Shown here: positions 17,701-58,900 of the stretch, piece by piece
Position numbering within the stretch: the stretch's first letter is position 1
How the letters are laid out: each line of letters starts with the position of its first letter
Source: Schmidtea nova
Lineage: Eukaryota
Direction: 5' to 3'
Length of the DNA: 64,000 nt
Assembly: GCA_044892505.1 (NCBI GenBank)
Contig: CM097882.1
Span: forward strand, 333,064,001-333,128,000
Notes under the pieces: model-generated
Databases searched by the model: none
The model's input: only the letters and a program-made list of their open reading frames with translations
Told to the model about the DNA's origin: nothing
Made by a program: the position numbers and the translations under genes

Positions 17701-20700
17701 ATGGAATTGGAAGTCAGAGCCGCCGAAATTTCTACCTAATAGAAATTTAAACTTTTATGATAATTGTAGTAAGGATCAGGAGACGATGCGTATCTTGAAC
17801 TCTTGGATATCTAACAGCTATTTAGTTGATTATGACGAGAAAACAATGGGTAAACCGATCGGATCAGTACCTATTTATGGTATAATTCAGTTAAATAAAG
17901 CGAAAGTGCGTCCAGTATTTGACTTTAGGAGTATCAATAAATATATTGATGTATATAGTGGGAATGCAGATATCTGTTCTGAAAAATTACGATCATGGAG
18001 ATGTTTAAGTAAAGAATTTGCAATGTTAGATTTATCTGATGCATATATGCAAATACACGTGGATAAAAGTATGTGGCGATATCAATCTTGTATGGTTATC
18101 GGGAAGAGATATGCGCTTACGAGAATGGAATTTGGATTGAATATCGCGCCAACGATAATGACAGAGATTGTGAATAAAGTATTGAACAACAATGAATCAA
18201 TCAAGAGTAGCACAAGTTCATACATAGACGATATATTCGTAGATGAATCTAAAGTCAAAGCAAGTAAAGTAAGTGCAGAAATGCGTAAATTTGGTTTGAT
18301 ATGTAAAGAAGAAGAAAAGGTCAAGGATACTCTCAGTATAAGAGTATTAGGTATTGATGTATTTCGAAAGAATAATGAACTACACTGGAAAAGATCGAAC
18401 GATATTCGAATGAATGAATTAAATGAAGGGCTTTCAAGAAGAGAGCTGTATTCGTTATGTGGCCAGTTAGTTGGAGTTTATCCTGTGTCTGGGTGGTTGC
18501 GGCCAGCTTGCTCATATATCAAGAGGCTATATAGTGGAAATTGGGATGATTCAATAGAAAATCATATCGTTGACAAAGTAAAATGGTTATTAGAAAGAGT
18601 GAATGAAAGAGATCCATCGTCAGGTATTTGGAGTGTTACCAGCAATCAGACAGGCATAATTTGCTGCGATGCAAGTTTGATCGACATTGGAATTGTATTA
18701 GAAATGGAAGGTTCAGTGGTTGAAGATGCATGTTGGTTGCGAAAACCTGATGATTCAAGACACATTAATTTGGTCGAATTAAAAGCGATTGTGAAGGGTA
18801 TTAATTTATGTATTAAATGGAATTTAAAGTACATCAAAATTAAATCCGATAGTAAATCAGTCGTATGTTGGGTTAACAGCATATTATCAAGCGACAGAAA
18901 AATACATACAAAATCAAATTCAGAGTTGTTAATACGACGAAGGCTGGAGCTTTTAAAAGATTTAGCGACTGAGTATGAACTTAAAATGGACATTGAGTTT
19001 GTATCTACAGAAAATAACAAGGCTGATGTATTAACGAGAGTACCAGCCAACTGGATGATTATTAAAAAAGAAGTCGCAGCTCTAGGCAATCAAAAAAGCT
19101 CAAAAGATGTGTTATTAGAGATTCACAAGAATTGCCACGTAGGGAAAAATAATATGCGATTCTTAGCATCGGAAGCGGGGCTACTGAATATGGATAAAGA
19201 GATCTCAGAAATAATTGCAAGTTGTAATCAATGCCTATCAATTGACCAAGCCCAGGAACGTGGGGAAAAGGTGACCTAAGCTGTGATGAAAATTGGTGCC
19301 GTTTAGCAATTGATGTAGCTAAATTTGCTAAAGATAAATATTTGACAATTATTGATTGTGGACCATCGAGATATGCAATCTGGAAGAAAATTTAGTATGA
19401 AAATTAATGCTTTAAATGAAGTGAAAAATTAATGCTTTATGGAAATTAATGAAAATTAATGAATTTTATGAAAATTAATGCATTTATGAATTTTAATGAA
19501 TTTTATGAAAATTAATGCTTTAAATGAAGTGCTATATGAAAGAGGAGCTCCAAGTGAAATATTATTAGATAATTACTTATCTTTTAGATCTAGAAAATTT
19601 CAAGAATTAGCAGATAAATGGAATGTTGAGTTGGTATTTAGAACAGTGAACCGTCCAGGGGGAAACGGGATCATTGAACGCAGCCATCGGACAATCAAAT
19701 CGCTAGCAGCTAGGTCCTCAGGATCAATCGCAGAAGCTGTGTACTGGTTCAACAATACACCAAACAACAATAATATTTGTCCATCTAAAGCTATATTTAG
19801 ATATAATCCAAAGCTGAATTTGCTAAGTTACAATAAAAAAGAGATATTAATCGAAGCAAAATATTCTGCTGGTGACCCGGTATGGATAAAACCGAATATG
19901 AACCAAAAATGCACAGAAAGATAGAAAGATGGTCTTATCATCAAACCATTATCAAATACAAAATTTTTAGTCAGATGTAATGGATATGATATGCCACGAC
20001 ACGTGGGTGATATTAGAAAAGGTGTTGTTAAAGATTCAGATGAATCTGGTGGGGATGTAGGAAGAATGTAATATTAAACAATTAATGTTGTTTTAATATT
20101 ATGAAAATGTGGTAAAATAGAATTTGAAAAAACGTTGTGTCTTACATAATTATTTTTAGAATATCAGTTAATATACATCATTTCTAAATTGAATCTATTA
20201 TAAGCAGACACTTGATGCGTTACATTCACGCAATATTTTTGAAGTTTCATACAAAATAGTCTGAAAAACCTGTAGTCATTTATAAATTTGATCGTTATAA
20301 TCAGGGGCTCAGATTATCTCCCACAGAGCTCTCTATAATTAAATAGAAATCAACTACAAGAACGATAAATTAACGAGAAAAATAAAAGAAAAAAATACAA
20401 TTTAACCATGATGATATAAAGTATGAACAAAGTTATTTAATGTTTATAAGATTAGTTCGTGAAAGTAGGAAGTTCTTGACGAATATGTGCAGATTTTTTT
20501 GCTTTAACATTTTTCTACACATTTTTCTACACATTTTAATATTTTTTTTACAATTTTTCTTCTAACATATACATTTTGACAAGTAAAAATCTCTTACTAA
20601 TTTAAAAAGATTGATAATTTATTAAAAAAATGGAGACCGAAATCCGAACAAACCTAATAATTTTTTTAATTCAATAAACCAGGGCTTCTTAAACTTTTGG

Positions 20701-20976: not shown

Positions 20977-23900
20977 CTTTTATAATTATATGGGGTCGCA
21001 AAAAAATTCACAATTATAAATGGGGTCGTGAATGGAAAAAGTCTAAGAAGCCCTGCAATATACCGAAGGATTAAAAAAAAGAATATTTAATATATTTGCA
21101 TCCGCAGATACAAAATTACGTAGAAAAAAACGCAAATCTTTAAGTAATTTAATTATTCTCTCGGAAGCTCACCGAAACGTAAATTTTCTTTGTCTATTTC
21201 AGAAACAGTTGGTAGATCTACCTTAGCTCCAGAAAGATTTACTCTTTTTTTCGAATCCAATAGACCTCAATTTTCCACTTCACACGTTAAGCATTTGCTG
21301 GCTTTTTATATTATAACTGATTAATCCATCATCAACGTAAATCCTGCTGTTTACGTGTAATATTATTATTAGTAATTTATTAATTCTCTCGGAAGCTCAC
21401 CGAAACGTAAATTTTCTTTGTCTATTTCAGAAACAGTTGGTAGATCTACCTTAGCTCCAGAAAGATTTACTCTTTTTTTCGAATCCAATAGACCTCAATT
21501 TTCCACTTCACACGTTAAGCATTTGCTGGCTTTTTATATTATAACTGATTAATCCATCATCAACGTAAATCCTGCTGTTTACGTGTAATATGTTAATTGT
21601 ATTATTATAATACCTCCACAATTGACTGTTATTGCATTGCTCGGAATATTTATTACCCACAACTATTTTAATTGTCGATCCCTTACTCAGCATCACTTCC
21701 CTGATTGGACTGCTATTCACAAGGCCAGTTTTAATTTCCGGTCTCTTAGTATCGAGTGCTATAGCAGTTGGACGGAAATACGGTTTGAATGTGTCAACTG
21801 CTGCTCACACTAATTTAATTGTCTCCTCGTGATATTCATAAAGTATCATCGCTGGAATGCAAAGGAGCAACAGTCATTCCAGCAGAAATTATTTTGTGAA
21901 GAACTGTAACCAATTTGTTAGCTTGTATAATCATACAAATGATTCCAGAATTTCTTATGATACATGGTTCGTCGTTGAAATTCAACTTGGACACATGTTA
22001 CGGAAATTTCTCAATTAATAATGATAATATTTATAGCATCTTTATCGATCCATCTTGAGTATTAATGACTCTTGAAAGAACATTTGGATTTAATAGATCA
22101 TGAATTTTAACTCAAAAAACAAAGATAAAATTGCTGCCAAAATTCTTTAACAAATGTACCGTCATTTTTTAATAGTATCTGTGGTTTACTTACCAGTTAT
22201 GTATAATTATTTGTTTTTATAATTGTGTGTGTCGGTATTGACAGTTTGGATTCCCCCCTTCCAATTATTTGTAGGCAGTATGATTTTTATTATAAATATA
22301 AATTGGAATAAATAATAAATTGTAATTTGTAATGATAATTATAATAATAGTGGTAATTATGATTATTAAATTATGAATTTGAATTTGGCTTGCTATAGCA
22401 AATTGCTATAGTAAGCCAAATTTCAAATTAAAAAAAATTGATAAAATTAAAAGGATCGAAATTATTTATGAAAGTTGATTGTGAAGAAAATATTTATACC
22501 CAAAAGAAAATCAACTAAATTAGATTCAGAATACAGAGAAATTAAAAGAAAATAACAGAAGAGAAGATTCAATTAAAGAGAAAGTAAATCCTGCTGAAAA
22601 TAAAACTATAGGACTCTTAGAATAAAGTTGAAAACTAAACAACAGAGAAATTAAAAGAAAATAACTGCAGAGAAGATTCAGTTAAAGAGAGAAAATCCTG
22701 CTAAAAATAAAACTAGAAATCTTGGAATAAAGTAAATTTTAGTGATTTCTTTTATTAATACATTTTTGGAAGTTTATAATTGTGTTATTAGTTTAATTTT
22801 TGATTTTTTTGTACTTTAAAGCACGATTACATAACAAGCACCCGAGTGTCTCCACGCTGTTTGTGGAAGACTCTCGCGGGCTCTACAATTTCCTGACATA
22901 CACACAAAATAAATAAAACAATTTTTTAACAAACATTAACATTCAAAGCATTAAATAACAGTATCAAATTGAGAAATCTAAAATTTAAAATAAACTCTCG
23001 CATTGTGATGTCATTTTGATTCTGAAGGTATTGTAAATAATTTTGCTTAAATCTTTTATAAACTCTTTAAAATACATTTTATCCATTTGCTGGCAAATTT
23101 TTACTGTGAAAACCATGAGACAAATGATTATTTTGAAATTGTGTATTATCGGAATTGAGGAATAACATTAACTTGAAATAATAATTTAATATCAATCCAT
23201 TATTTATCTTTTAGCGGTGTTATCAACTCACAATAAGTCATAATAATCAACCAGCCAATCATATTTTTTGAATTCCGATTTTGATCAATTAAAATATATT
23301 GAAAATATCTTTGATTTTCTGACATGTGATGGATAATGAAACTATTCCCTCAGTTTAATGCGATTAACTTTCTGAACAATTTCAAAAATTTAGTTTCAAA
23401 GACATTGAAATTATAATTTGTTGGTTCAAGATATCTCGATCCATCTATCTTCATTTTAATTAATTTTGAAATTTTGAACAATTTTTTAAATAATAAATAA
23501 TTAAATCCATCAAAAACTTTTAATATCAATATCAATAATTCCCATTATAGTAAGACTAGAGATCAAAATTTCTTTAAACAAGTACTCAATATTTCGGCAC
23601 AGCCTTTATCAATACACACTTGATAAAGGCTGTGCCGAAATATTGTGTACTTGTTTAAAGAAATATTGATCTATAGTCTTACCATTTTAAGAATTATTGA
23701 TATTAATATCGAAAAAAAATCAAAGGTGAAACAAAAATATAATTATGATATTTAAACAATAGTTTAGTTTTAATTCTCCAAAATTTTAATTTAAAATTTA
23801 AAAACCAAAATTTATTTAAAATTTACTTTTTTAAACCTAATTCTTACTTATTTTATATATTAAAAAGAAACCAAGAAAAGAAACTTCTAAAAACATAATT

Positions 23901-26900: not shown

Positions 26901-29900
26901 TGATATTGGAAATATTGCTCTTTCTGTTTTTGCATTTAAAGCTCTGTAGTCGATGCACATTCTCATGTCCCCATTCTTTTTTTTAATTACCACTATGGGA
27001 AAGTTCCATGGTGAATTGCTTTCTCTAATAATTCCCGCTTCTTCCAATTCTGTAATGTATCTTCTCACATCTTCCTCCAATCCCCTTGGTATCCTTCTAT
27101 GTTTGAATGCTATCGGTGTTGTTTTCCCGTTTCTATGGTGTGTTGTCCCACATTTGTCTTCCCAATATCCATTTTGTAACTACTGAATACATCTTTGTTC
27201 CGCCATAAAATTTGTGTAATCTTCTGTTTTTCTGTTATTGTTAATCTATCGTCTAGCTTGTTTATCAACCCTTTCACAATTCTGTCTATACTTCTCTTTT
27301 CTTTGTTTTGGTCGACTGTTGACAATTTCATCAACGTGTTATTTTTCTCCTCCTTGTCCGTCTATTTTTCCGCTTCTCCCAGTGTTGTTCCTGTATGTAG
27401 ACTTTTCATTTCTTCTTCCTGCATATTAATTCGGACCCAAATCAATCAATCGGAACATGTTGCTAGTCCGTCTGCTACCAGTATACCTCTTTCCTCCATC
27501 TTGCTCTTTTTTCCTGTAAATAAACAATTAGTTACGTCTTCCTTTATCCTCTCGTTCTCCTTATCTACTATCATCCCTTTGATCCAATATTCTCCCTCTC
27601 CTTGTAATGTCACATTTTCTGCTACCACTACTTTTCTCGTTTCTTCTTCCGTCCCTTTAACTAGTCTTCCCACTCCTGGACGTCTGAGAGTGGTCTTTAA
27701 CAGTTTAAAGACGATAGTATTGATGTCTTGGATAGAAATGGAATTTGAATACCCTTTACCTTGATACAGTCTTCTGCCGGTTTCATTATTACTCCCAGTT
27801 CTTTCATGCATCTGAGTCCGATATACGCATGTGGGAATACCCCATTCATTATTTCGAATTTGTGTTTGGTCGTCCTTGGACCCAAACTCAGTGATAATAC
27901 TAATTGTCCTCGGCTTTTTCCTTTACTTCCATCTGCGTACGCTACTCTAACGTTTGAATCCCTGACTTCTATTGTTGAATCTTGTTGCATTATTTTCTTT
28001 GCCAGTTCCTCGCTAATGACATTCAGATCTGCTCCCGTATCGAATAGTGCTTTAACTTCTTCTCCTTGGATTTTGCAACAAATGATTGGCTTGTTGGTTG
28101 CCCTTTCCGATCGTCTTTGCGATATTACTTTTGTGGCTTTTTTATATTTTTTCCTTTGGTTTGTCGCCATTACCTCCGATAAACTGTGCCCACTTCTCTT
28201 CCATTGTTAGCTTACTTTTCATTGTCTTCTTTTCTTTTTGTGTAATCGCTTTCATAATTCGTTCTGATTGGTCGTCTTCTTCGTATTCGCTATCTGAACT
28301 TGTCCTTTGTACGAATACTCCTTCTAATTGTCGTACTCTTCTATGATCGTCCCTCTTGTTTGGGCATTCTGTACTTATATGTCCTTTTTTATTACAATTA
28401 AAACATGTTACCTTTTCTCGATACTCTCGGCAATTGCTCGATATATGTCCTGTTTTTTTGCATCGGAAACATCTTTCGTTCTTCTTTTCTTCGCAGAAAC
28501 GTGCAATATGACCGGTTTTGCCGCAATTGTAACATTCCACTTGTTGTCCATTGTGAAATTCTTTTCTACTTCTATCTTGGTTATTCGGTTCTTTTAAATT
28601 TTTTATAATTTCCTGAAGTCTCTTAATCTCTTCTCTTAATTCTTGTAACTCCAATGTGGCATTTTTATCTACCCGCATTTGTGTACCGTTGTTGTTTCCT
28701 TTCGCTTGATTAATTCCTTTCCCGTCTCTTTATGCATTATAGCTCTCTTCTCGTAGTTGTGATAATCTGTATTATCTAATTATTTCTTTCTGGTCATCTT
28801 CTTCCTTTATTAGTTTGGCAGCTTCTTCTATGGTTTTGGGCCGCAATATTTTCAATGTATTTCTCATGATTTCACTTTTTAAGCCTTCTCTAAAGATCAT
28901 TAATTCTATTCTGTTTCGATCTTCTTTTGTGTCTTTCGTCGTTCTTTTTATCCGTCTACTGAAATCTACTATCGTCTCTCCTTCGTCCTGTTTGGTCGAT
29001 AGGAAAATTTTAACCTTCTTGACTCTTGACTCTTTTATTGGGAACATTTCTGTTAATGTTTTTGTGTACCACTCTACTGTGTTGTTTTTTTCTCCATACG
29101 TACTTTTTGATTCCACCTCGAATAAAATTTCTGGATCGAAATATCTTCTTAATAATCGAACTTTGTATGCCTCTTTCATCTCGAACATCGCCAAAAGGAT
29201 GTTATATTCTCGAGATGTGTCCTCACATCCCTTTTACACTTCTTTGTGTATAGATATAGGGATTCCTCTATCTGTTGTGCCAATAGATTTTTGACAAATG
29301 AATTGTCAAACGTAACTGTTCGTGACGCCATGTTATATTTATAGATGAATTAATCAAATTAAATAAGTAGGAATTAAATAAGTAGAAATTAGAAAATCTA
29401 TTTATATACAAATAATATTCAAACAATTTTTATAATTCATAATATTAAAACGAATTTTAATATTATTAATTCCCATATAACATTCCCCCGTCTTATTCGG
29501 CTCTCAACTCGAAATCGTCGTATAATCGCGGTATATATTAAACTTATTTACATTTGTAAGTAAAGTATTGTTCTAACCAATCGGGTAAAGTCATTATAAT
29601 TACCATAATTTCGTGATTGTAGTCCACAGAAAACCACTATTTGTGCATGTGAAAATTTAGATTATCTGCGCCATTTTATAGCTTATATGCATAAAAATCA
29701 AAAATGATAATTTGTTGAGAATAAATTTTCAATACAAGAACTTTTCTTTTTCAAAATTTTAATTAATTGTCTCATGCAAAAGTAGTGTAATTTGTTAAGA
29801 AGCTAAAAAATCATATTAAGGATTTACGTTATATTTATAACTTTCATAATTAATTTTAATCCTCTCAGCCCTGGTTTTTTTCGAAAAAAAATAATATTAT

Positions 29901-35024: not shown

Positions 35025-38000
35025 TGTTGGACGAAAACTAAATCCAATTAATTTGGAAGCGAGAGAGAACATAGTATTTAGAAACTATGCAAGAATTTTA
35101 ATTAAATATCTGAGCGAACACCAAATAAACAAAAATAATTAGAAGCAGAGAAAAAATTAATTAAAATAAAAATAAAATTTAATTTAAACAAGATTAAGAA
35201 AATACAAACAAGAGATATTAACAAAAAATTCATTAAAGAATTAGGTAAATATAAAAATTCAAAAAATCTTATAATTAATTATCTTAATTTTGATAGTATA
35301 TAAATGTGAAAAATGTAAAATTAAATTGTAAAAATATATATCAAAATTAAAGTAGTTAAAATTTATGTATAAATACAAAACTTTTATAAAAATAAAATTT
35401 TTTTGAGTAAAGAAATATTAAATGTAAAACTATAAACTTATTTTAGTAAAAATAAAATATTTCTTTTTTAGTTATATTAAATTAAACAGAAAAAGTATTC
35501 TAGAAGCTTTTGTTTTACTGCATCAATTAAATTAAATGCTATGAAATTGTCATAAATATAGATGCCATTTTTATTATTTTTAACACTTGAGAATTGAAAA
35601 AATTTTCGCGAAGAATCAAAATTCTTCCCTGAAATTTTGAAGATACTTCTAACAAAGGACTTACATATCTCACCAGTTGAAACGAAAAATATTCGGAGGC
35701 GTATCACTGGTCAAATTTTTTGAGAGATGGCACTATTCTGATTATACAAGGTATGCCAGACTGATACTTTGCTCGTCCTGTTATTTTATTCGGTACCGAC
35801 TCTTGCCCTAGTTATTCATATTGTTTATTGCTTCATTTGTTAAATTAATAATTGTTTTTCAATGACCGATGAATTCTCAGTCAAGGAGCAAGATCACTGC
35901 ATGTATTAATATGAATTTTTGGTCTTTGTTTGTTTTTGCTATGAGTATCTCCAGCTTATTGCGATCCAGGTACGTCAGTGTCGGTTCAAGAGTTGAGAGT
36001 GGATTTTCTAAACTGTTCAACCCTATGCTGTCAACGCGACATCGAAGTCCAGCTTCATACTTACGTATATTACGTATATTACGGCCGGAGGATCATGTGC
36101 AATGTTGTTATAATAAACATTTTGCTTCCTTAAATATATTTTGTTGTTGTTTAAAGTAAATTTTCTTTAAATATCAGGAACAATTTTTCTAGATATACAC
36201 TACATAAAGATGAGAAACATTTAAAGCAAGAAATATGATAGCGAGGTATTTTTGTAGATGTTTATGTAAAAACGATGGTTGAAAATGACAAAATATCAAA
36301 GATGAAACAGCTAAGAATATTTGTTTGATATATAAATAAGTATGAAAGACAAAGTCAATCACTATTGTCTATGATTTATGAAGTTTTCGTATGAATGATT
36401 AATCGTATATGAAAGTGTTCTAGTTTTTGTAGGAAAGATAAATGAATTTATTTAAAGTTTATCGCTTGGTAGAGTCAAGCTCACTTAGAGACAGATGACG
36501 ACAAAGTTTTTTAATTCACGATATAAAACAGTGATAAATTTACAATTATAATTCATTATATTTACCATTAGTATCAATGAAGAAAACAACTCACAAATAT
36601 TTTTTGAACATTAATAAAAAAACAAAAATCCAATGTTTATGAAATAAAATTCCACTCTCGAAATTGAAGAATCTATTGTTGGGATTGTTTGAAGTTCTTA
36701 AAAGCTAAAATACAAAAATTCAATATTATATCATGATAATATAAAATTCTAACAGTTCATTCAAGCGTGCTGATATTATCAGCTAAAATATAATAGTAGA
36801 AAATCAACTTAGGCTGGTAAGATTTAGATCACTGTAGTGGTCTAGAAGGTCGATATTGAAGTTTTTCTCAAAGTATTAAAGGAACATGGTCTGCCTCAAA
36901 CTTTCACTTTATTCAGTGATATTAGATTTTCAACAGTTCATTTTAATGACGAGTTAACTCCAAAACAATCAAAGCACTAATAATTGAAGCTTCAGAATGG
37001 TTTTGAAATCATGTAGATTGAAAATCGAACTTATCATGATATATGTGCTCAATTATCTTAAAATTGAGAAATTCCAAGTCAAAACAATTTGAATAATTTA
37101 ACCATAAATGTTTTTTTCAAAATTTTATATATTTGATAACTTGGTTGTGATGTTGGCTGATTTGTCGTTTCTGAATTGTTTGAGTTATCTTTTTATTTAC
37201 TTAAAAGAATATAATATTGTGTTTGTTTTAATATTTCTTTTGGATTAAATTCTTTTCCTTGAGTTAAAAATTTGTTTGAAATACAAATTCAGATTAACTC
37301 TTGTTTTTATATTATTGGATACAATATTGATGATTTCTCTCAAAATTTATTTTAAAACAGTCAGTTTTATTTTACTCCTGTTGATTTTTGGTTCATCGAC
37401 TGGCTTGTTTATCAAACCCTATCCTAGTGTTTATACACCATGTTTGGAACATTTAATATTATGCGAGAGCGGTGGATTAGATGGAATACCAACCGACCTT
37501 CATGAAGAAACAATAAAAGTTATTTTGGTTAGACATAAATGCTCTCAAACATTTCTCAGTCGGCAAAACCTTTCCAAATTCACAAAACCAAAATATTCGT
37601 TTGAAAAGTTGTCGATACGCCGGAGTAATATTCAGATTACTCGTTTCCAAACTTTTTATGACGCGAGTGATTTGGATTTTATGGATCTATCAGAAAGTCA
37701 GAAGTGGTATATTGGTAACAGAGCTTTCGACAATTTGAAATCAAAGCACCTTGGGCTCGATTTAGTCAGTAATTTAGAATTAAGCGAAGACACACTTCAA
37801 GGGTTGTTAGTAGCATCTCTGTCAATTGAAAAAAGTCAACTCCGAGCAATTCCTTGCAGATTAATTCAACCACTGTCCCCGTGAATTGCGAGCTCTGTTT
37901 TTATCGAATAATAAATTGATGAGTTTGATCTCGAGATACGATTCGGTATTTCGACAAATAAACATTCTTGATCTCCATGGCAAACCATTCATCTGTTCAT

Positions 38001-40949
38001 GCAATATGCTATGGCTGAGAAACCCATTTTTAGTGGGCCTAATGTTGATCCTACCATTAAATTGGGTTTCCGACCGCCTTGGGAGCAAATATTCGATGAT
38101 AAATTATCTAGACAACCACTACAGGACTGATTAGCCGGCGAAGTCGGCTCTATAGGTTTGGTTTGCCGAGATTGTGTAGTGATTTGCGGACGTTGTACTA
38201 TTAGATATCGACAAATCGATAAGGCAAGTTTAACAGCTTCGTTGTATAATCCATTACTGCGTAACGCTAGAACGCTGAGACCTGATAATGGCGATTGCTC
38301 TGGCCAAATATGTTTGACATCTTCTTTGTCATTGAAAATCTCTTGTAAATGCGGAAAATCCGAGCTCATATCAGCGGCCATCAAGGCTAAACAGTTACGA
38401 AGTAATGATGGTGATGACCTCATTTGAAATCCATTAGACCAAGAAGAATTTAAACAATCACGAATATAGTCATATTCAGGCCAGTAGACATACCTACAGC
38501 CTTTATACATTTTGGGAACACAATCTTCTGGGTGTATATAATTATCAGAACAAGCTACCCATAAACCTGGTCTAACAAATTGGCTAGGATGTTCTGGTCT
38601 AGCTACCATCCAGTATGGTGAAACGAATGTTGCCAAGTTGAAAAGAACTGTAGCAGCAGCTAGACATATAGCTAATTTCAAATTGAAAATCTTTTGGTCC
38701 ATTTTTTTGTACTTCAATTTATATATTTAAAAATTGAACAAATTCAAATGACTGTATTTAAAATCAAAAAATACAATTTTTAAATCTTCAAGAAAAATAA
38801 TAACAATCCTGTAATATTAAAACAACAAGTGTTTAATTTTTTTAAGGAATTTAAAAAACCAAATTATATCATTCAAAAATGTTAAATCTCTAAATCATAA
38901 ACAGAGAATTTAGTCCATAAGGTATAGAAAATTTTTTAGAAAAGAATTTTCTGGTTAAATTACATCAATTTTCTTTAACTTGAATTTTCTTAGATAATTG
39001 AGCAAATATATCATGATAAGTTCGATTTTCAATATGCATGATTTCAAGACCATTCTGAAGCTTCAATTATTAGTGCTTTGATTGTTTTTGAAGTTAAGTC
39101 GTCATTAAAATGAACTGTTGAAAATCTAATATCACTGAATAAAGTGAAAGTTTGAGGCAGACCATGTTCCTTTAATACTTTGAGAAAAACTTCAATATCG
39201 ACCTTCACATTTGATCAATAAATTTTTACACTACAGTTCAACTATTTTTTATGTTAATCCGGCGAGATACCGTAGAAACAATTCTCATCTGTATAACTCA
39301 GTTAATATTAATAGTACTTAACTGTTTATTTTTTATTCCCCAAAATTTCGCCAACACGGTATCATTATTACATTACCTGTTGATTCATGAAGAAACCCTT
39401 AGAGTCACTCTTAATTTCACAAGAATTGAAGACGTTATTTTAAGTTGTAATTATTATCTCCACACAAGCAATTGCTTCGTAATCAGTACAACCGTAAGAA
39501 AATAGATTTGCATTTAACTCATATTTAATACAGAACTATTAGATTGATGAAAATGTAATATAACGAAGCAAGATAATTAAAATATTTAACAAATATACAT
39601 TTTCCAATAATCATTTAGATAGATTAACACTTAATATGGTATATCTCTTAGTAGATCTATAAAAAAGATAAAGCATTATTGTGAAAGAAAAGGACCGAAC
39701 AATGAAATCAGCATATATCTTCTATCAATAGCTTTGAACCCATAGAATTATTCAATCAATTATAGCTCTGGTAACAGCACTCACTTTTTGAGATTTTTCC
39801 ACCAATAGTTACATTACTAATGTTGCTTGCGACGAGTAACTACTGATTTAACAGTAGTTATATTGTTANNNNNNNNNNNNNNNNNNNNNNNNNNNNNNNN
39901 NNNNNNNNNNNNNNNNNNNNNNNNNNNNNNNNNNNNNNNNNNNNNNNNNNNNNNNNNNNNNNNNNNNNNNNNNNNNNNNNNNNNNNNNNNNNNNNNNNNN
40001 NNNNNNNNNNNNNNNNNNNNNNNNNNNNNNNNNNNNNNNNNNNNNNNNNNNNNNNNNNNNNNTATTGTTATTTTTATTACTGCTGTTATCATTATTAATA
40101 TTGTTATTGCATTTATTCTGGCGGGTGCCCTTGTGGACACCGGATTCCTGTGTTTTATTTTTGTCTGGCCCTATTGTTATTATTATCTTCTTCATGTAAC
40201 AGCCATGACAATAATAAATTAGAAATTAAAATTAATCAAAAAACGATCAATAACAATTACTATAGACTACAAAAAAAATAAAAAGTAATTGCCAAGCAGA
40301 AATTCATTAAAAAAGAAAACTGACAATATTAAATTAAAGAGACTACAAGAACAACTGAAAAATTTATTAAGGATACGGGAATATTCAAAGGGAAACTGAA
40401 AGATTTGAACAAAGTTAAACTAAACTCGGAAAATACCAACGACAATTGTGACTTAAAGAAGATTCGAATAAAAATAAATAGAAGTTGAAAAATGCCAACC
40501 ACAATAGCGACTTAAGGAAGATTCGGATAAAAATAAATTGAATTTATAAAACACCGATGACGATTGTAATTTAAAGAAGATTTGAACGACAAAAATTTGA
40601 ATGATAGAAATAAAGCTTCAATTGAATAAAAAAATAAATTACAAAATTAAAAAGTCAAAACTAGGAAACCAAAGATCCAAATAAAAGGCCCAAGATATAT
40701 TCATTATTATTCACTGTGAGTAACGTTTTTTATTCTTTTGCATAAATAAAGGTTATTGTTATAATTCGTTAATTGTTATTACATTCACCTACATACGCAC
40801 TCACGCACACAAAAGTAAATAACTGTCACCCCAACTGTCCCTACAGTGCTATTTTTTGGGAGACTCTGTTGGGCTCAACAAATTTCTCAAAACAAAGTGC
40901 AAACAATAACATACAAAATACTAAAAAAACCTACTACATAACCCCCAAA

Positions 40950-46900: not shown

Positions 46901-49900
46901 TCGTTAAGTAAAACTATCTTTTTACTAATTTTATGTTGATCTGTAGATTGTGACTGTTCAATATGTCGAGGACCGCGTGCAATTCGTCTGTGTGGCTGTC
47001 TCGATCAGTTGACACATCGTCGAGATATGCGAAAGTGTGACGGATGTCACGAAGAATTGTGTCCATGAAGCGTTGTAAGGACTGAGCTGTATTTTTGAGG
47101 CCGAAAGGCATGAACATGTATTCAAAATTTCCAAATGGCGTAGTTACTGCTGTTTGGGGGACGTTGTCGATACGGATGGGAAATTGATGGTACGCTTTTG
47201 AGAGGTCTATAGTTGAGAACATGGTAGATTGTGAAAAGCGTGTTATTAAGTCTTTTATGAGTGGCGTTGGGTATGCGTCGTGGTTCTGTTACTTGGTTGA
47301 GTTGTCGATAATCTCCACAGAGTCTGAAAGATCCGTCTTTCTTTGTGACTAAGTGTATTGGCGGAGTCCATGGTGAAGATGAACGACATATAATGCCTGC
47401 GTTTTCTAGACTAACTAATTCAGATTTGACTGCATCGAGTTTGGTGGAAGAGAGAAATCTGGCTCGATTTTGTTGTGGTATGCATGGTAATGTGTGAATA
47501 TAGTAAAGTTGATAGGGTTGTGGGTGGTCTGGTAGCGGATTTAGTGATAAAGTTTAGGTATTTGATTGAAATTAATTTGATCATGTCGTTCATTGTGTCT
47601 GGACTGACTGTATGATCGATTTGCAACGTGTGCTCAGCACATGTCGTCGTAATATCCTGTTGAATAGAGTTGAGTTGTGGCACTGAAGATGTCTGAGTTG
47701 AAACTGTTACTATGTTCGGCAGTGAATTTGTCGCTGTATAGGTGCCGTCCTATTTTATAGTGAACAGACGACGGTTTTTGCAATCTACCATGATGGATTC
47801 TTTGCAGAAAAATTCGGAGCCTAATATTGGCTGGATCGTCTCTGCTATGTGGAAAGTTTGAGTGAAAGTTGAGTCTACTGTTGGTATTGTGAATGAAAGT
47901 TTTTTTGTTCCCAAAAATTGAATTGGTGTGCTATTGGCAGCCAATAGTGAACGGAGATTTGAAGTCTGGCCTAAAAGTCGTTGGAAGTATTGAAAATGAT
48001 GAGCCGGAATCGATGAGAAAATGAATTGATGAGCTAGAATCAAAAGTTTCTTCAACAGTGAAGATGTTGTTGATCGCAAGGACGCCGCCTGAAAATCCAG
48101 GGTTGACAAACAGCGAAGCTGGTTTTTATTGGGAGAATCGGGATAATTATTGTCGTGTTATTCTTTTGATAAACGGCTTACGAAAGTGCAACCAGGAAGA
48201 CATTTTTGTGCGTGGAAACTGAAGATGTTGTGGTAGATACAAATGGGGATGAACCTCAGAGTTGAAGGAAAATTTGGCCATGAACATCCGATATGATATG
48301 TTCTGGCTGCAGATGAAAATATCTTGTAAAAAAAATAAGTCAGAGAAGGAAAGGATTTTGATTTGTCGCTTCTTTGGTAATATGAATTTTGTTGGGAGGA
48401 ATTATGTATTTTCTATTTGTAAAGATTTGTTTGAATACTCAGAAATTTGAGTAAAATAGATTTTTAAAATAAAGCGTGATTTTCTTGTCTTTATAGAAAC
48501 AACAAGCTATCGCGGCAATAATGGACAAGATGATCCCAATTTTCAGAGGAGAAGGCGATGTTCAACAGTGGATTCAAAAAGTGAAGCTAGTGGCAAAAAT
48601 TCAGAAAATCGCGGATTTAGAATCAATTATTCCATTATACCTAGATGGGCCAGCTTTCGCTGTATATCAGCACTTGAGTGCGGAAGACAAGGGCAACGCA
48701 TTGAAGATCGAACATGCTCTAATCGATGTCTATTCCATAGATATGTTCCAAGCATATGACCGATTCCGTGAACGAAAGTGGTGCAATGAGCCAGTCGATG
48801 TATATTTGAATGATCTCAAAAACTTAGCATCATTGGCCAAGATAGATAATGAGATTTTAATTAAAACGCATTCATTATGGGTTTGCCAACAGCAACGTCA
48901 CAACAGTTACGATCCTATGCCAAAATTCAGCAGATGTCTCTTGTTGATGTTTTGAAGCAGTCCCGAGTTTTAGTAAACTGCAACACTATGGAACTATGTT
49001 CGGCTGTTGTGGGAAAACAAGACAAGCATAATAAATGTTTATATTGCGGAAAGAATGGCCATATAGAAGAACGTTGCTTTAAGAAACAAGGAAGGAAGTG
49101 TTGGCGGTGTGAAGAAGAGGGACACATTGCAAAGGAGTGCACCAAAAATTTAGAGTCGGGAAACGGAAAAGGAGTAACGCATGCGCCAGCGTCTACTCCA
49201 GCACGAATATAATGGCGCTTCAGTTTATTTCTGTCATGATCAATGGGGAGTCTGTGAAAGCATTGATCGACTCGGGATGTTCCAAATCAGTCGTGTAAGC
49301 CAGAATTGCGAAGAAACGATTTATACGGAATGGGAGTATCATGACTGCGGATGGATCACTAGTCGAGTGTATGCGTGATGTAAAAGTTCAACTGATTGTT
49401 GGTGGTAAATTATTGAGCGTTGATTGTGTCTCGTTGTTGAATCTACCACTAAATGTTGACATGATTTTAGGAATGGACGTAATAGGGATGCTTGGTGGTC
49501 TTAAAATTGACAAGACTGGTGTATCTTTTCCAGGTATTGCAGATGTATCGTGCGTGGCTGAGATGTTGGATCAGTCAAATGAGAATGTGCGAATTGAAGA
49601 TGGTGATTTTTCAGCAGTATTCAGTGATAGCAAGTGGACCGTAAAGTGGAAATGGAAAGCAGAACCAGTTGTACTATTGAATAGAATTTCAAATTACAAA
49701 ATCGATCCAGGGCTACAGATCAAGTTTGATACGGAGGTTGAACGGTGGATTCAAGAAGGATGGCTAATTCCAACGAAAGACGTCGCGTATGGAAAAATCC
49801 CGTTATTAGCAGTAGAGCAAATAAACAAAGGAAAAGTTCGCCCGGTAATGGATTTTCGGGAACTAAATAAATATGTTAGTAGTCATACTGGACAAAGTGA

Positions 49901-52900
49901 CGTATGTGGCGAATCATTAAGGCGATGGCGAATGATGGGCGAACAGGTTACATTAATTGATCTTAAAAATGCTTATCTTCAGATCCATGTTGAAAAAGAC
50001 CTATGGGAGCATCAAAGGGTTAGTTTCAAAGGGAACGGATACTTTCTCACGAGACTCGGTTTTGGTTTAAATGTGGCTCCAAAAATAATGTCAACAATAG
50101 TACGAAAGGTATTACGTTTAAGAGAAGACATCAGGAAAGCAACAGACAGTTATATTGACGACATTATTGTCGACCAGTCGAGAATAAACGTCAATGAAGT
50201 AATAAGCCATTTGGCAACATACGGGCTAATTACAAAGCCACCTGAAGAGTTTGATAATGCAAGAGTGCTCGGTCTCCAGCTTCAAACGAGTATTAACGGT
50301 CGTACGTGGCACCGTGGAAACATTTTGCCAGACAACGAGTTTACAGACATGTCAAGAAGGGAGTTATTTTCACTCTGCGGACAACTCGTTGGGCACTATC
50401 CAGTTGCTGGATGGTTGAGAGTAGCGAGTAGCTATATAAAACGACACAGTGCTGGTAGTAAGTGGGATGACTCAATTGGAAAGATCGCGTTAAGAATGGT
50501 CAACGAAATGATGTATCGTGTGAAAGAAAGTGATCCGGTGTCTGGTGAGTGACACGTAAACAAAGAAGGATCTACAATTGTCTGGTGCGATTCAAGTAAT
50601 CTAGCATTAAAAGTGGTGTTAGAAATATCAGGTAAAATCGTCGAAGATGCATTATGGATGAGGAAGAAAAACGACTTTGCTCATATAAACCTTGCAGAGC
50701 TGGATTCGGTGATAAAGGGAATTAACTTAGCTATCAGCTGGGAAAGAAGCAACTTAGTTGTAATAACAGATTCCGATACCGTTAGGAGTTGGATAGATTC
50801 AGTTTTAACGGATACTTCTAGAATCTGAACTCATGGAATTGCTGAAATGCTAGTACGAAGACGTCTGCAGATTATCTGTGAATTACGAAAGAGTTATGAC
50901 TTAACGATCTCGGTTGAGTTTGTTCCGACAGATAAAAACAAAGCAGATGTACTCACAAGAGTCAGTAACAAATGGCTGACTTGGGTTAAATCGTGTGATG
51001 AACCAACTGTAAGCACCGTTGCTGTTATGAGCGAAGTGGTACGAGAAAGTCACAGACAGCATCATTTTGGAGCCAAGAAGACATTGTATTTTGCAAAGCA
51101 ACTTTGTCCAGACGTTACGCTTGAGGATGTTAAGGTAATAATCGGTGAATGTGTAGAGTGTCAATCTATCGATCCAGCGCCTGTTAAATGGGAGCATGGA
51201 GAGTTGAGCGTTAAGGAGACTTGGAAGAGACTGGCTATAGATGTTACATACTATCTAAGTAAGCTTTATTTGACTGTGATTGATTGTGGACCGAGTCGTT
51301 TCACTCTGTGGAGGGAAATAAGAAGTGAAGATGCGGAGACCATTACACGGAACCTTGAACAGATCTTCAGAGAACGAGGTCCCCCTGATGAACTGGTGAT
51401 CGACAATGCGACTTCATTTCGGTCAACACAAATGAAAGCATTGTGCTACAAATGGGGTGTAAAATGTGTGTTTCGATGTGCTTATCGGCCTTCCGGAAAC
51501 GGTATAATAGAACGAAACCATCGTACTATTAAACGTATGGCAGCCAGAACCAACAAGGGAGTATTGGACATGGTATACTGGTACAACCTAGCACCTAATG
51601 ACAAATGCGGAACGCCTCCATCCTCATCCGTGTTTTCATATTAGTGGAAAGGAGTTGGCGCACGTAATACAGAAGAGAAGACACAGTATACTTCGTTCCA
51701 AGTTGGCGATGCAGTTTACGTAAAACCACCAAATGCGAAATGCACCTCAACATGGGGTGAGGGGAGTGTAACGAAGGTAAATTCATCGACCAACTTCGAA
51801 ATCAACGGGATACCGCGCCACTATTCTGACATACGACCGGCTGTCAACGAAATGTCAGTGGATAACAACAACGATGAAGTACTAACAGGCGCTGATAATC
51901 CAACACTCGACTTATTGCGCCGTGATGAACGTAGAGGCAGGACCAGAAGACCTCGATATCTTGATGATTTTGAAACAAGTTTTAACGAGAACGAAGACGA
52001 AAATCACGGGGAGATGTAAAGATTTGTTTGAATACGCAGAAATTTGAGTAAAATAGATTTTTAAAATAAAGCGTGATTTTCTTGTCTTTATAGAAACAAC
52101 ACTAATATATGTATTTTCTACCGCTGATCATTTCGTCTCTAAATTAAGAACAAGGCTTGATGACAATTCCATTAATGCATTATGTTTTTTGAAATCCTAT
52201 TTCTTGAACAATTCGTAAGATTACTGAAAATTTTGATTAATTAAAGTACAAGTATCCTTTATTTATATCGAAATTATGCAAAAATCCTTGTTTAAAATGT
52301 TTTTTGTAAGTATTTTAAATTCGCACATATAGTTTTTTTGTAAAATACACAATTGTTAGAATCAAGAAGCTTAATCATTCCAAATAATTTATGTTTTTCG
52401 TTTTTTATGACTTTTAAAATAACTTCTAGTATAAATTTTATATTTTTATGTAATTTAAACGTACAAACCCATTTTTGATGTTTTAGTCATATTTTATCAA
52501 CCTTTTTTTAACTAATAGCGATTATAATATAAAGATAAAAATTCTTTAATAAACGTTTGACGGTAAATAAGATAATATAAAATAAACAGTAATTTATTAT
52601 CTAATATAACTTATTTAGAATTTTCTAGAAACTCCGGGATTTTTAATTTGAGAACCGCAAGATTACGGGATTGTAAAAAGTCGTCGGGATTGAAATCACT
52701 AGCCATGATGATTTTTTGAAAGTTAAAGTGTTATTTTTGATTATTTAAAGCAAAAAAACCAATTAATATAATATAACATTAATAATTTAATTATTAAATT
52801 AATGTCATTATTAAATTGAAAAGTATGAGGCACTACAGTCATCACATTATTTTTGCCATCAAAAAATTTTAACATGCTTTATTTCAGATGATTAATATTT

Positions 52901-55900
52901 TTTATTTTGTTCGCCTCTGATCTCTTCTTTTCTATTTTAGAAATTTCCATTTATTGTTTATCCAAAAAAGTTTTTAATTGTTACACTAATTAAAAAAATT
53001 GATCTATTGTCTTTATAAAACAATAAGTGATTATTTCACATGTGATAGACTGCGTTGCCCTCATATTTATTATCTCCATAAATTAAAAAAAAATTGGTGA
53101 TCTTCAAAAGTGTATTATTTATAAGTTATATTTAAACAATGTCAATCTTCTTACGGTAACAATACATAGGTAAAAAACAACAGGCAAATTCTGCAAACAT
53201 TCCATCATTTCATTTTACAGATATTTATTATAATTATAAATATTTTTTATACTTTGACCAATTATTATTCATATATAATGCTTATTAAACACTTAATTGA
53301 CTAATATTATACTTTTTCTTAAATTAATTACTGCATGAATAATTCAAAAGTTGAATATTCATCGCATCTTTATATTATTTAGGATTAGAAAATGAAAAAA
53401 AAATTAAAGGCTGTTCTATTCAAAAAAAAAATTTAAGATTATTTGTTATATCGCATGCCACCCAACCTTTCATTATTTGCATTATTATTTGTTTTTTCCC
53501 AGTTATTGGAGCATCATTGGATTGAAAACCATTATCCTGCAAAATGTATAAAATGCAAGAAGACTACAAAATTAGGGGCCAAATCTGGATTTCACTGCAG
53601 ATGGTGTAAAAGAACGATCCATAAATGCTGCATGGAAAGTTGGAGACCAACCTGTGACTTAGGAGACAACAAGGAACACATTCTTCCACCAATTTGTATA
53701 TATCCAAGTGTTTTGGTAATAGAAAATTGTTTTTATATTAATGATGATTTTTAAATGCAATTATATTTTTAAAAATGCTCTTTATTAGTTTTGGGGCATT
53801 GTCTTTTTTGATACAGCATTTCTTGACGAAGCAATTCGTCAAAATATGTTCATTTTGGCTTGGTAAATTTTTATACCTTCTGTATAAATATCTATTTGGA
53901 TGTTTTATGAATATTGAGTACAAATTTGGATTTTTGAGCAAAGAATTTTCAAAAATGTGATATGGTAAGGAAAACGTAAATAAGTCTGTTTTAAATTGAA
54001 TAATTATCAAGAAGAATAGTAAGATAGAAAGAGCTATGATTCTATTGTCATTTATTCTGAAGGTTTTGCTACGAATAAAAAATATGCCGTAGGTAGCAAT
54101 TCTAGAATAAAGGTTAAATATGGGAGATTCTTCAAAAAATGTAATAAATCGTTCGAATTTTTAGATGTTAGCATTCTTGAGGTATACCTGTATTTAATTT
54201 ATTCCCGTTAGCAAAGCTTTTTTTAATAATTTCTGATTCTAATATTAATTTGGATACTTTTTTACTTATAATGCTAATTCTACAAAAATTCAACAAAAAA
54301 TTATATTCTATATTAATCATCCTAATTTTTACAAAATTGCCTACTATCACTATTATCATAATTAATTAAAATTAAATAATTACACTGGGGAACATTGGAA
54401 ACTTTTTTTCGAGTGTTTTGATTTCATTATGTGATTCTGGTGTACTTTTTTATGCTGATCACGAATATGAAATCCGGTTTTCTCTATCACGTCCAGTTTG
54501 TAAAAACTTTTGCATTTACTTTTCTATGAAAACGACGTTTTTGCCCCACGCGTAATTTCTGTTCTTATATACACCCCATCTGTCCTAATTTAATTTCCAT
54601 CTGCAAACTTCCAAAACTGAGAAGAAGAACCTTTAAATATATTACAATATATTTACCTATAAGAAATACAGAGGCCATAATCTTACATGACACTCATACT
54701 GTGAGGGAGGTGATTAGTGTCTTTTACGAGCTTGTCTTTTGTGAGCAGAATTACCATGTCGTTTTAGACCCCAGCAGTAGTCAGCCATCATGCTCACATT
54801 CCAAAGGCCTTGATATCGCTGCTTCATTTTGGCTATATCTTGGTGAAACCTCTCACCTTGTTCCTCACTGTAAGCACCTAAATTATCGGGGAAGTAATCA
54901 AAGTGAGAGTGAAGATAGTGCAGCTTTATACTCATTCGGCAGCCCAGTTTCTCATAACTGTGGATCAAATTCTCGACACACTGTTTATAATTTTGAACTT
55001 TGTTGTTGCCTAGAAATCCCTCCACAACTGACTTGAAATCTAGCCACGCTGCTTTCTCGACAGAGGTCATTATTGTGGTGAAAGAGATGTCTTTCAAAAG
55101 ATCATGAATTTGAGGCCCAACAAATATACCCTCCTTTAACTTAGCATCACTAAGTTGCGGGAATTTTTTAGCAAACCATTTGAAAGTATTGCCTTGTTTA
55201 TTGAGCGCCTTAACAAATAATTTCATTAACCCGAGCTTGATGTGAAGAGGAGGAAGTAAAACTTTGCTGGAATCCACAAGGGACAAACTTTTCTGATTGT
55301 GTTGGCCCAGTGTGATTCTAGTGCGTTTTGGCCATTCGTTCTGTTTTAAATGACGGTCATCTGCTCGACTGTCCCAAAGACACAGAAAACATGGGTACTT
55401 GGTGTAACCACCTTGCAAACCCAAGAGAATGGCAATAACTTTTAAATCTCCACAAATTAGCCACTTGTGCTAATTGTACTTTAATGAGGAAAGCACAGTT
55501 TTCAGATTGTCATAAGTTTCTTTCATATGCACTGAGTGAGCCATAGGAAGCGATGACAGTTTATTGCCATTGTGCAACAAAACGTTTTAAACTCATCTTT
55601 GAGGCATCGATGAATAGTCGCCATTCATTAGGATTGTATGTGCCTCTCATTTGCTGAATGAGACCGCTGACATCATTGCAGAACACAAGAAGATCTCTGA
55701 AAGTAAAAAATCGAGTAAATTCTCTGTCACGGTTACGGTACCAGGCGTATGTAGTGTTAGGCATTAAAAGGTTTCCCTCTTGCAATCTTGACCCAAGAAG
55801 TTCAGCTGCTTTCTTGGGAAGATCTAAATCATGAACCAAGTCGTCCAGGTCTTCTTGAGCAAGCAATTGAGGAGCATTGGGTAATTCAACAATGAAATCT

Positions 55901-58900
55901 TGATCTGCAACACTATTTTTAGAGGAACTCGATGAAGAAACGTGTTCCGTGAGAGATGCAGGTGGATGGGGAACGGGGATGTCATCAGAATGAGGTGCAG
56001 ATACAGACACTGATAGAGAATGAGGATATGTAATGAGATGCTTGTTTCTTTTATTGTATCCCTTTATTGTCACCATACAAAAATAACAGTCATTCACGTG
56101 ATTTGTAGGCTCCCGCCAAACCATTGGAACACTGAAGGGCAGGCACCTTTTCAAACCCAACTTCCATTTTCTCAGGTTTTCTACACATACTTTACAAACA
56201 AGATGAGGTGCCCACGGCTTCTCCTGATACCCAATTGGCATCCAAAGTAGGCATGATAGCATTGCTTCACAAATGTAGTTATTGGAAGGCGTTGATTTTG
56301 AGGGGTAAATTGGCCACATATATAGCAAAATATATCTGGTGAATTGATGCAATGCCGATGCATGACGAATGGACTTGTGAATATAATGAATGACTACCTG
56401 TTCACGTGAGTCCATTAAAGTTATTAAAAATGGTGACTTCGCTGGCAAATCGTATTCCTTCTCTCTACCCTCCCTCTCTCTGGCTTATCTCACCTATGTA
56501 TTGATTACATTATACACTTGCGAGCAGCAAACAAATTTGACATACACCATCACACATCCTTTCTTCCCTTTCTTTGGGCCGATGGTTACCTGCATACATA
56601 CACTAATTTCCTTCTCACTCATCCCTACTAAAGCCTAAAATCACTTGTCACACACAGTCGTACTATCATTTACTATGCAATACAACATCAACCCCCGCAT
56701 ACACACACCGGAATATATTCTTTACACACACGCTATATATATACTACCCTGTCCCTTAACTTTGTGGGCTCTATTCCACACATTTCGTGGGCTCTGAAAA
56801 ATAGGTGTCCTGCACGCGCGCATGCACACACATACGAAGGAATAAGGAAAATGTATAAATGCATTATGCGCCATGTTCCTTCAAACAAAATATCATTGAT
56901 TTTGAGACAATTTGATGTGATGAGCCTAAACAATTATCATAATTTTTATTCATTCATAGCCTAGTTCACGAAAATATAGCAATCGAACAGACACAAAAAA
57001 TGATGTTCCCCAGTGTTTTTATTAAAAATTATTAAAAATTCTTTCAATTCATTTAAATGCATACTTTTACTCAATCCTAATATTTCATCATTTACAATTC
57101 CCATACATTCTAAATCATCAATATTTAAAAACTATAATTCATTTGATTAATTTTGATCAAACAATCATTCAAAATTATCTTAATACTCTTTTGTTGTTCA
57201 TTCAGATTTATCATATCAAAATAATTCTTGATTGAAAAAATAAATTTTTCCAGATCTTCTCTTAGATAATATAATTTCGGCTATGGAATAATCTGAAATA
57301 AAATAATCGTTTTCAAAATGTTGACTCCATTGAATTTTGTTTTAGGCTACATAATCACGCAAGTTAATTAAATTTAAATTAGATTTAAAGCTAAGTCTGA
57401 ATCTCGCCTAAAAATCATGATATTTTGTGCCACCCTCGTAATGAGGCAATTTATTATTTATTAACGCAAGTTAGTGGATGTCGCTTAGCCATTTATTTAA
57501 AATCTGACCATTCTATGAAAATAGTTTGGATGTTTGAATCATTTTTATTGATTTATGTGTTGGAATTAAATCGTTTGTAGACGACTTACTTTATGGTCGG
57601 GAAAGCGTAAGAGTTCGAGTGGTTTATGCTGCAAGATTTTGAACTTCATCCGCGCGCGATGATACTTGAGGATATTAAATATGCACATCATGAAGAGCTT
57701 TTTGAAATCCAATCAGGTTACAGTGAGCTAGAGTTCAAAATTTACTTATTTATGATAATTATAACGAATATTTGAAAAAAATTGAAAATATTATGTGAAA
57801 ATATTTTTTTAAAGAAGAATGAGTCCATACAGTTGAGGGACTTACAAAGAGCATAACAAAGTTGTTTATCAAGTTAGGAGAAAAGCAATCAGATATTGAT
57901 AAGCATTTGTGCCAACATGAGATTTTGGTTTTACATAATATTAATCATATTAATAGTTAAATAATTACTAAATGACAAGTTAATATTTTATGCATATTCT
58001 CACCTAATTAAATTTACTAGAAAAAATTTATCCTGTCATTTGGTAATTATTTAGCATATAATTTATGATGGCACCATACCAATACCGTATTGATTGTTAA
58101 TTTTCTACCAATTTTATATGGTCATATACTTATTTTCTTGTTTCTTTTCCTTGTCCATCCTATGCACCTTGCTTATGGTACCTAATGAATACGGCTAATG
58201 AATACGGCTAATGAATACGGCTCTATATTGAATGATATCAGAGAAATAAAATTGAGTTGAATTTTAATTTAATAAATATTATTGTAAAAAATGTAATTTT
58301 GGATCTTTATTTAACACTATACACACAGAATCACGGTGTTATATGTGTGATGCGGATAAATCTGAATCACCGTGCACAGCTCTCAAGTGCGAATAGCGGA
58401 TTTATCCCGCGCTCTACAAAAGATTTTGTGTTCTTTGGACTCAAGTGTTACTCATTTCAAAAGGGAAAAAATTATGGGGAAAATATAATATACAGACTTT
58501 AGTCTAACACACGAGTTCAGTGAAACAAGTGTATATTAAAAAGTGTATATTTAATTCCGCTTTTAAAGGGTTAAATAGTAAACAAAACAATAAAATGAAG
58601 AAATGACGATAAAAAACATCATTAAAATCATTATCTTCATCACCTTTGATTTTATTTAGAATCAGCTGGACCCTAATTAAAAATAATTCATAAAAATTAC
58701 CGAATAGAATGATAATATTTAATGGTGTAACTTAATTATTATTAAAACGAATAATTTATTATGTTTATTGTATTTATAAGGAAAGAAAACAAACCGCGAA
58801 AAATAAAGACGTTTCAAGTCTTGAAAGGACAAATGAGTGCACTAATCTGTCAGATTGTGTTACGGATGAAGTCGATTGTCATGAGAATAACACTGGAAAT

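Follow-up and report, generated by a model that had tools for sequence, protein, structure and literature searches.

Two families of compact LTR retrotransposons in the window (the whole 64,000-nucleotide stretch of DNA that was analysed) carry, directly after the 5′ LTR, a 12-nt site that is the exact complement of nucleotides 1–12 of a host tRNA. The complementarity, position and boundaries of this site, its conservation and covariation across a clade of relatives and the intact RNase H residues of the accompanying enzyme suggest that the 12 nt after the LTR probably bind the 5′ end of a tRNA, and that a short 5′ tRNA piece primes minus-strand synthesis. To our knowledge, minus-strand priming is known in three forms: from the tRNA 3′ end, from an anticodon-loop half-tRNA and by self-priming. 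If true, the proposal would add a further form that links the tRNA-primed and Tf1-type mechanisms. It would also predict sequence-guided cutting of tRNA by an RT–RNase H, and give very short 5′ tRNA fragments a direct role as primers and possibly as silencers.

The site after the LTR and its complement in host tRNA genes

The family A element has the following features in the window.

48418–52101, forward strand: family A element, a 3.7-kb LTR retrotransposon
48418–48504, forward strand: 5′ LTR, 87 bp, TG...CA, 98.9% identical to 52015–52101
48505–48516, forward strand: primer-binding site (PBS) AGCTATCGCGGC, exact complement of host tRNA-Phe(GAA) nt 1–12, zero spacer after the LTR
48521–49212, forward strand: gag region, with ATG at 48521, zinc-knuckle-like CCHC motifs and stop at 49210–49212
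49158–49164, forward strand: GGGAAAC heptamer upstream of the gag stop, predicted −1 frameshift site into pol
49215–51960 (approximate ends), forward strand: pol region with protease, RT, thumb, RNase H and integrase
50352–50525, forward strand: DUF7047 thumb in pol
52008–52014, forward strand: polypurine tract (PPT) GGGGAGA, preceded by an (A/G)ATCA box
52015–52101, forward strand: 3′ LTR
48413–48417 (CTATT) and 52102–52106 (CTAAT): 5-bp target duplication (TSD) with one mismatch
1–843, forward strand: 3′ end of a second family A copy, with integrase end, PPT and 3′ LTR (757–843), 98.1% identical over 847 nt

Two further elements serve for comparison.

16498–20146, forward strand: family B element with 91-bp LTRs and a TAATT target duplication
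16589–16600, forward strand: family B PBS AGCTATCCGGGC, exact complement of host tRNA-Lys(UUU) nt 1–12
17243–17249: family B heptamer, predicted frameshift
29320–29330, reverse strand: ordinary family C PBS with a TGG start, putatively for tRNA-Ser, in the contrast element

The original prediction had placed an atypical PBS immediately after the family A 5′ LTR, and the 12-mer at 48505–48516 indeed follows the LTR with no spacer. AGCTATCGCGGC occurs once in the window and adjoins the CA end of the LTR. The AGCTATC core alone is not enriched in the window (6 matches against 4.5 expected), so the weight of evidence lies in the full 12-mer and its position. The chance that a 12-mer equals any tRNA start is approximately 4e-6, assuming about 60 tRNAs. 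The gag and pol frames of this copy are both broken, with in-frame stops in pol. In family B the 91-bp LTR differs from that of family A, AGCTATCCGGGC again follows directly, and the RT regions of the two families share 43% identity.

Both complements are abundant in the host genome. The 15-mer starting GCCGCGATAGCT has 2511 exact matches against none for its reversed control, and those listed sit in 240-bp tandem arrays. At the one locus tested, ARAGORN finds seven tRNA-Phe(GAA) genes, the first of which begins exactly at the match, in agreement with the predicted tRNA identity. The family B 15-mer has 682 matches (control 0); one of two loci tested holds four tRNA-Lys(TTT) genes starting at the match and the other a truncated piece. 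Host tRNAs that start with the complement thus exist for both 12-mers, and the proposal that each family tracks a different tRNA 5′ end holds exactly over nt 1–12 for Phe(GAA) in A and Lys(UUU) in B. Only four Phe-like host genes differ at nt 5. The host's tRNA genes form long tandem arrays, each of a single tRNA species (L001, L012, L226), of hundreds to thousands of copies, with units of 240 bp for Phe, 419 bp for Lys and 243 bp for Met, interrupted by stretches of 5–8 kb free of tRNA genes.

The match is sharply bounded. The longest tRNA complement anywhere in A or B is nt 1–12 at the PBS (12/12 exact), while in the crossed pairs (A against tRNA-Lys, B against tRNA-Phe) the longest is only 9 nt, elsewhere in the element. 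It stops at nt 1, with no extension into the tRNA gene leader, and none past nt 12. The family B PBS tracks the 5′ strand of the tRNA (CCGGGC) and not the 3′ acceptor strand (TCGGGC). Predicted PBS–tRNA duplexes have energies near −23 kcal/mol against −15 for crossed pairs, and opening tRNA nt 1–12 would cost about 13–14; these values are rough because the predicted tRNA folds are not clean cloverleaves.

A site of this kind might instead serve only as a docking place for a tRNA or a piece of one, in packaging, dimerisation or regulation, with priming left to the tRNA 3′ end at a second site, as in Ty3, or to a protein. Ty3 does have tRNA contacts outside its priming segment (excerpt of PMC5371799). 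However, the site adjoins the LTR end, where minus-strand synthesis must begin, neither A nor B has a complement to the CCA end of its cognate tRNA longer than chance, and the conversion-like copies described below suggest tRNA templating; docking alone is thus quite improbable. It is hardly credible that the site reflects self-priming, of the Tf1 type or with a primer that splicing puts together in the LTR, or that it is a protein-binding motif or a product of chance. The length of the site and its missing TGG do resemble Tf1-type sites, but in A and B alike the longest stretch able to pair with the PBS measures 4 nt within the LTR and 6 nt across the element, which would not suffice even for a primer spliced from two halves, and the variants of the site follow tRNA sequences.

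Conservation and covariation among relatives and host families

The RT–thumb region retrieves 514 relatives from a protein collection. Those named, known here as protein records only, come from Hydra, Plakobranchus, Watersipora, Nymphon, Trichuris, Trichinella and crustaceans, so that the records span cnidarian, mollusc, bryozoan, nematode, crustacean and sea-spider groups and several animals could serve to test the proposed mechanism. Scanning metagenomes yielded 77 loci, of which 19 were without a gag start and one without upstream DNA. Among the 57 readable loci, 51 match a permissive junction pattern, five were recognised by eye (1–3 changes) and one is truncated. On this sequence evidence the tRNA-5′-end PBS is a clade-wide trait, present as a 12-mer in 56/57 readable metagenome relatives. 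The original prediction of a clade-wide priming system therefore stands with regard to the site, and priming itself we infer from sequence. An alternative named with that prediction was that relatives keep AGCTATC alone; instead the whole 12-mer with its GGC end is kept, and it varies where tRNAs vary.

Labels were assigned to 57 loci (the 51 pattern matches, four by-eye junctions and two contig-end junctions) and comprise TTTC (12), TCGC (11), TCTA (10), TCAC (9), TCCC (3) and 12 single forms. Across 41 family representatives the positions facing tRNA nt 8–12 and 1–3 are nearly fixed and those facing nt 4–6 vary, although the permissive pattern used for labelling itself enforces part of the conservation at positions 1–4 and 10–12 and so inflates it. 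Position 12 carries 1.56 bits of information and position 13, one base past tRNA nt 1, only 0.18; within the site the minimum faces tRNA nt 5.

Several variants match tRNA sequences from other sources. The TTTC form AGCTATTTCGGC equals the end of a Drosophila tRNA-Phe 5′ probe (excerpt of PMC7038984), the TCTA form AGCTATCTAGGC matches a tRNA-Phe(GAA) in a viral contig (L158), and the Lys form equals the end of published Lys-TTT probes (excerpts of PMC4688932, PMC12921927 and PMC1797187). In one contig (L141) the site CGCTACCGAGGC is one base off the complement of host tRNA-Met(CAT); its position 1 is C, in step with G12 of that tRNA, and a published elongator Met template likewise has G12. 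The primer tRNAs of the clade, as read from the site, would thus be Phe, Lys and, probably, elongator Met. No named eukaryotic tRNA was matched to the ATCAC, ATCCC and ATCTC variants or to the singletons. Five viral-contig loci with a candidate tRNA start were examined (four tRNA-Val, one tRNA-Phe). Searches of viral contigs for tRNA starts of the ATCAC and Met types found phage-type tRNAs or no gene at all (in one of them, one of 42 loci), which leaves both variants without a link to a eukaryotic tRNA by this route, and no relative of the element was found in viral contigs.

The original prediction took families A and B to be independent of one another. That part fails, as both fall in one DUF7047-bearing clade, so the pair shows a change of tRNA among its members. 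A quick tree of 68 rows, with SH-aLRT support only and two host rows (L210 and L217) left out for short matches, places A and B on either side of its midpoint and host Phe-type families at three separate places among relatives with other variants. Contig pairs from the same record share a variant in 16/51 cases against 136/800 (permutation p 0.04), a weak signal, and metagenome contigs bear on host tracking across species indirectly.

Host families give a more direct view. Sixty DUF7047 host loci were examined among 150 listed, and 30 have clean LTR pairs of three LTR types; 26/30 carry the exact Phe site and 23/30 an exact 5-bp TSD. A PBS pattern with four free positions listed 100 host matches, representing 96 sites when counted by hand: 44 exact Phe, 34 exact Lys, 15 with one change, two with two changes and one unrelated. 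The TTTC and TCTA types are absent from these 96 listed sites, compared with 22/57 metagenome labels. Since the genome total for the pattern, 1087, is not above the 1186 of its reversed control, only the make-up of the free positions counts as evidence, and by that measure the host families use the host's own tRNA variants (78/96 exact). The 1186 matches of the reversed pattern indicate that another host-genome repeat carries the pattern backwards. Twenty of the listed sites, when examined, revealed further Phe-type and Lys-type host families, and the 11 host rows of the tree form eight groups at 75% RT identity. In one further family, two copies 80% identical (L236 and L239) have a PBS that reads as a decayed Phe type and a decayed Lys type, and may record a change of tRNA within that family. 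Four internally deleted copies (L207, L213, L219 and L256; approximately 1.4–1.8 kb) keep both LTRs and the PBS region, and may be non-autonomous derivatives.

Conservation at the LTR-proximal end bears on the length of the primer. A shorter primer, of nt 1–10 or 1–11, would make the first AG of the site the dinucleotide removed by integrase. Two-base overhangs beyond CA are usual in retroviruses, which favours this alternative, as do three host copies that are Met-type at position 9 yet keep A at position 1; these three may reflect ordinary mutation or a primer ending at nt 10–11. Against it, A1 is found in 40/41 and G2 in 41/41 representatives, pairing with tRNA U12 and C11, position 1 of L141 changes in step with tRNA-Met G12, and C-to-A changes are common background among the junctions. 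We therefore regard a shorter primer as improbable.

Proposed priming mechanism and copies carrying another tRNA's 12-mer

The preferred reading is a primer whose 3′ end lies at or near tRNA nt 12, because the LTR-adjoining PBS fixes the start of the minus strand. We infer annealing, cleavage, the identity of the cutter and primer copying as follows. With the aid of the Gag nucleocapsid, the PBS would invade the tRNA along its 5′ acceptor strand and into the first part of the D stem. Cleavage of the tRNA after U12, where the duplex ends, or close by, would then expose a 3′-OH facing the terminal A of the LTR, and RT would extend the 5′ tRNA piece into minus-strand strong-stop DNA. Plus-strand synthesis would finally copy the primer to its 5′ end, which would produce both the sharp 12-nt limit and rare copies with the 12-mer of another tRNA.

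Three copies with another tRNA's 12-mer suggest that the tRNA piece is copied as a primer. The primer is copied into the PBS by retroviruses but not by Ty1 or Ty3 (excerpt of PMC7472051). Among all 81 family A junctions, 57 are exact, 20 have one change and four have two, and one of the 81 is an exact Lys-UUU site. That copy is old (93.6%) and truncated, so the case for conversion in family A is only suggestive. A targeted search for double changes at the two positions involved gave 20 matches, six of them in Phe-family contexts (three double CpG decays, two mixed, one the Lys type); 12 others are in Lys-type or unassigned families, and L236 and L239 come from one family. Other adjacent double changes also occur among family A junctions. 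In family B, 93 of the first 100 of 181 junctions are exact, and two (L254 and L255) share one T-to-G change that yields the complement of a tRNA-Lys(CTT) start seen in a viral contig. These two are independent insertions, 97.4% identical, with different LTR subtypes and TSDs, and one has identical LTRs. With a background of about one T-to-G change per 800–1000 T sites per copy, the rough chance of two at this site in 100 copies is near 0.01 in what is a post hoc test. Nine stretches beside the host Lys, Met and Phe arrays contain no tRNA-Lys(CTT) gene.

A search for family B junctions in which the base after the PBS is not A found none, and so gave no sign of a primer left on integrated 3′ ends. 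One locus (L031, G000:C1:4056800-4062273) has a 3′ LTR followed by the full PBS and two bases, then unrelated DNA, with no TSD; it represents a tandem copy that was cut or, alternatively, a primer copy that was kept.

If a tRNA 5′ end does prime synthesis, the element's own RNase H is the somewhat favoured cutter, by analogy with Tf1. The same primer could also arise when host nucleases cut the tRNA in the D-loop, its 5′ fragments annealing to the PBS and being trimmed to the duplex end, a proposal that shares our main claim and differs in the cleavage step only. Ty5 uses a primer end that host RNase P creates within a tRNA (excerpt of PMC5371799), 5′ tRNA fragments of Lys-TTT have been probed in zebrafish (excerpt of PMC4688932), and a free fragment would spare the unfolding of the tRNA, at the energies given above. 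Yet in all families the duplex stops at nt 12, within the D stem, a position dictated by the element rather than by a loop of the tRNA, and the geometry and length fit the cut made by Tf1 RNase H (excerpt of PMC7175516), which makes a host cutter unlikely, if a serious candidate.

A third route would leave the tRNA whole. Retrons prime from a 2′-OH and so produce branched RNA–DNA, and an RT that primed likewise from the 2′-OH of nt 12 would need no nuclease and would account for the sharp boundary and for the copying of nt 1–12. The fold is, however, that of an ordinary LTR-type RT with thumb and RNase H, and nt 12 is U or G and thus no fixed branch base; such priming is very improbable. Our reading in its most specific form combines several claims. 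A deep, undescribed lineage of compact invertebrate elements, with a DUF7047 thumb and a distinct RNase H, would use its own RNase H to cut mature tRNA after U12 in an RNA–RNA duplex, creating a 12-nt primer and hence a Tf1-type mechanism in trans, a fourth priming class. Taken as a whole, this is offered tentatively, as falling somewhat short of probable.

Enzyme, classification and relation to known systems

A model of the family B RT region (pLDDT 93.6, 102 sequences) comprises an RT core, a thumb of three helices, equivalent to DUF7047, and RNase H immediately after it. Its best fold matches, among solved or predicted structures, are the RTs of foamy virus, caulimovirus, HIV, MLV and Ty3, at 12–18% identity. 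RT catalytic residues are conserved, and the RNase H residues D, E, D and D are kept in 100, 100, 96 and 79 of 102 rows, the misses being gaps in all but two cases. The RNase H of all ten full proteins tested matches RVT_3/RNase_H, and the Gypsy-type RT_RNaseH domain of Pfam is found in 0/10 full-length relatives and in neither A nor B. Pfam identifies RVT_1, DUF7047 and rve in family A, and RVT_1, DUF7047, RVT_3 and H2C2 in the scanned piece of family B. Family C is a standard Gypsy element with RT_RNaseH (1e-24) and without DUF7047; RT identity to it is 28% over 141 aa.

The elements have the hallmarks of LTR retrotransposons, with paired TG...CA LTRs, TSD, PPT, gag, protease, RT, RNase H and DDE integrase, and the pol order PR-RT-RH-IN with rve and H2C2 integrase domains is that of Ty3/Gypsy (Metaviridae). 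They share with Ty3/Gypsy the TG...CA LTRs, TSD, PPT, CCHC gag and this domain order, and differ in low RT identity, in RVT_3/RNase_H, in the clade-specific DUF7047 thumb and in the PBS: the clade junctions examined have no TGG-starting PBS or match to a tRNA CCA end as in canonical 3′-end priming. Other classes were considered. BEL/Pao elements are marked by Peptidase_A17 and DUF1759, and no BEL-type Pfam match was found in the window elements or the relatives scanned. DIRS elements have a tyrosine recombinase instead of a DDE integrase and no TSD; here an rve integrase and a 5-bp TSD are present.

The gag stop mostly lies 38–71 nt upstream of the protease motif, with pol in the −1 frame, both in the window elements and in metagenome loci. 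GGGAAAC also occurs in 7/18 metagenome relatives, and GGGAAA(A/C/T) precedes the gag stop in 12/18; this heptamer is a predicted −1 frameshift signal. In some full-length relatives gag and pol form one fused ORF. A short (G/A)ATCA box directly 5′ of the PPT (52002–52007 in the window) recurs in host families and several metagenome relatives.

Two known systems come closest. The hemivirus types (copia, 1731, Ty5, Osser and the fungal Helenus and Copia partners) likewise use a host tRNA 5′ fragment with an internal 3′-OH (excerpts of PMC1181622, PMC5371799 and PMC10886601). Their PBS matches the anticodon stem-loop, with a start at nt 40 (excerpt of PMC1181622), whereas here the match is nt 1–12. 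The half-tRNA class is rejected on that account and because integrase follows RNase H, the PR-RT-RH-IN order setting the DUF7047 clade apart from Copia half-tRNA users. A plant survey cited in the excerpt of PMC10886601 found truncated primers in Copia lineages only. In Tf1, Tf2, Tj1 and sushi the primer arises when the first 11 nt of the RNA pair with the PBS and RNase H cleaves where that duplex ends (excerpts of PMC7175516 and PMC4600332). The geometry is the same and the length nearly so (11 against 12 nt), and the difference is that the annealing RNA would here be a host tRNA in trans, the element having no self-complement; the Tf1/sushi self-priming class is set aside on the 4-nt limit within the A and B LTRs. 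The present elements would join a tRNA source with Tf1 geometry.

In the open-access full text searched, no description of the clade or of a PBS for tRNA nt 1–12 was found; prior notice in Repbase, Dfam or a subscription journal is unlikely, though a real prospect. PBS 12-mers appear in open-access text only as tRNA probes or unrelated primers, and PMC6238403 contains none of the PBS or tRNA terms. PBS searches by tRNA 3′ ends, such as that in the excerpt of PMC13524379, would score the whole clade as having no PBS.

Other features also lie in the window. Long open frames of 468, 192 and 307 aa lie at 11127–13066 and 55561–56484, the 468-aa and 307-aa frames having no Pfam match. Two related palindromic repeats of approximately 200–240 bp, at 9092–9331 and 23517–23746, have arms 88–96% complementary. 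An element at 36845–39206 with terminal inverted repeats of approximately 430 bp (80% overall) and two ORFs inside is likely a DNA transposon.
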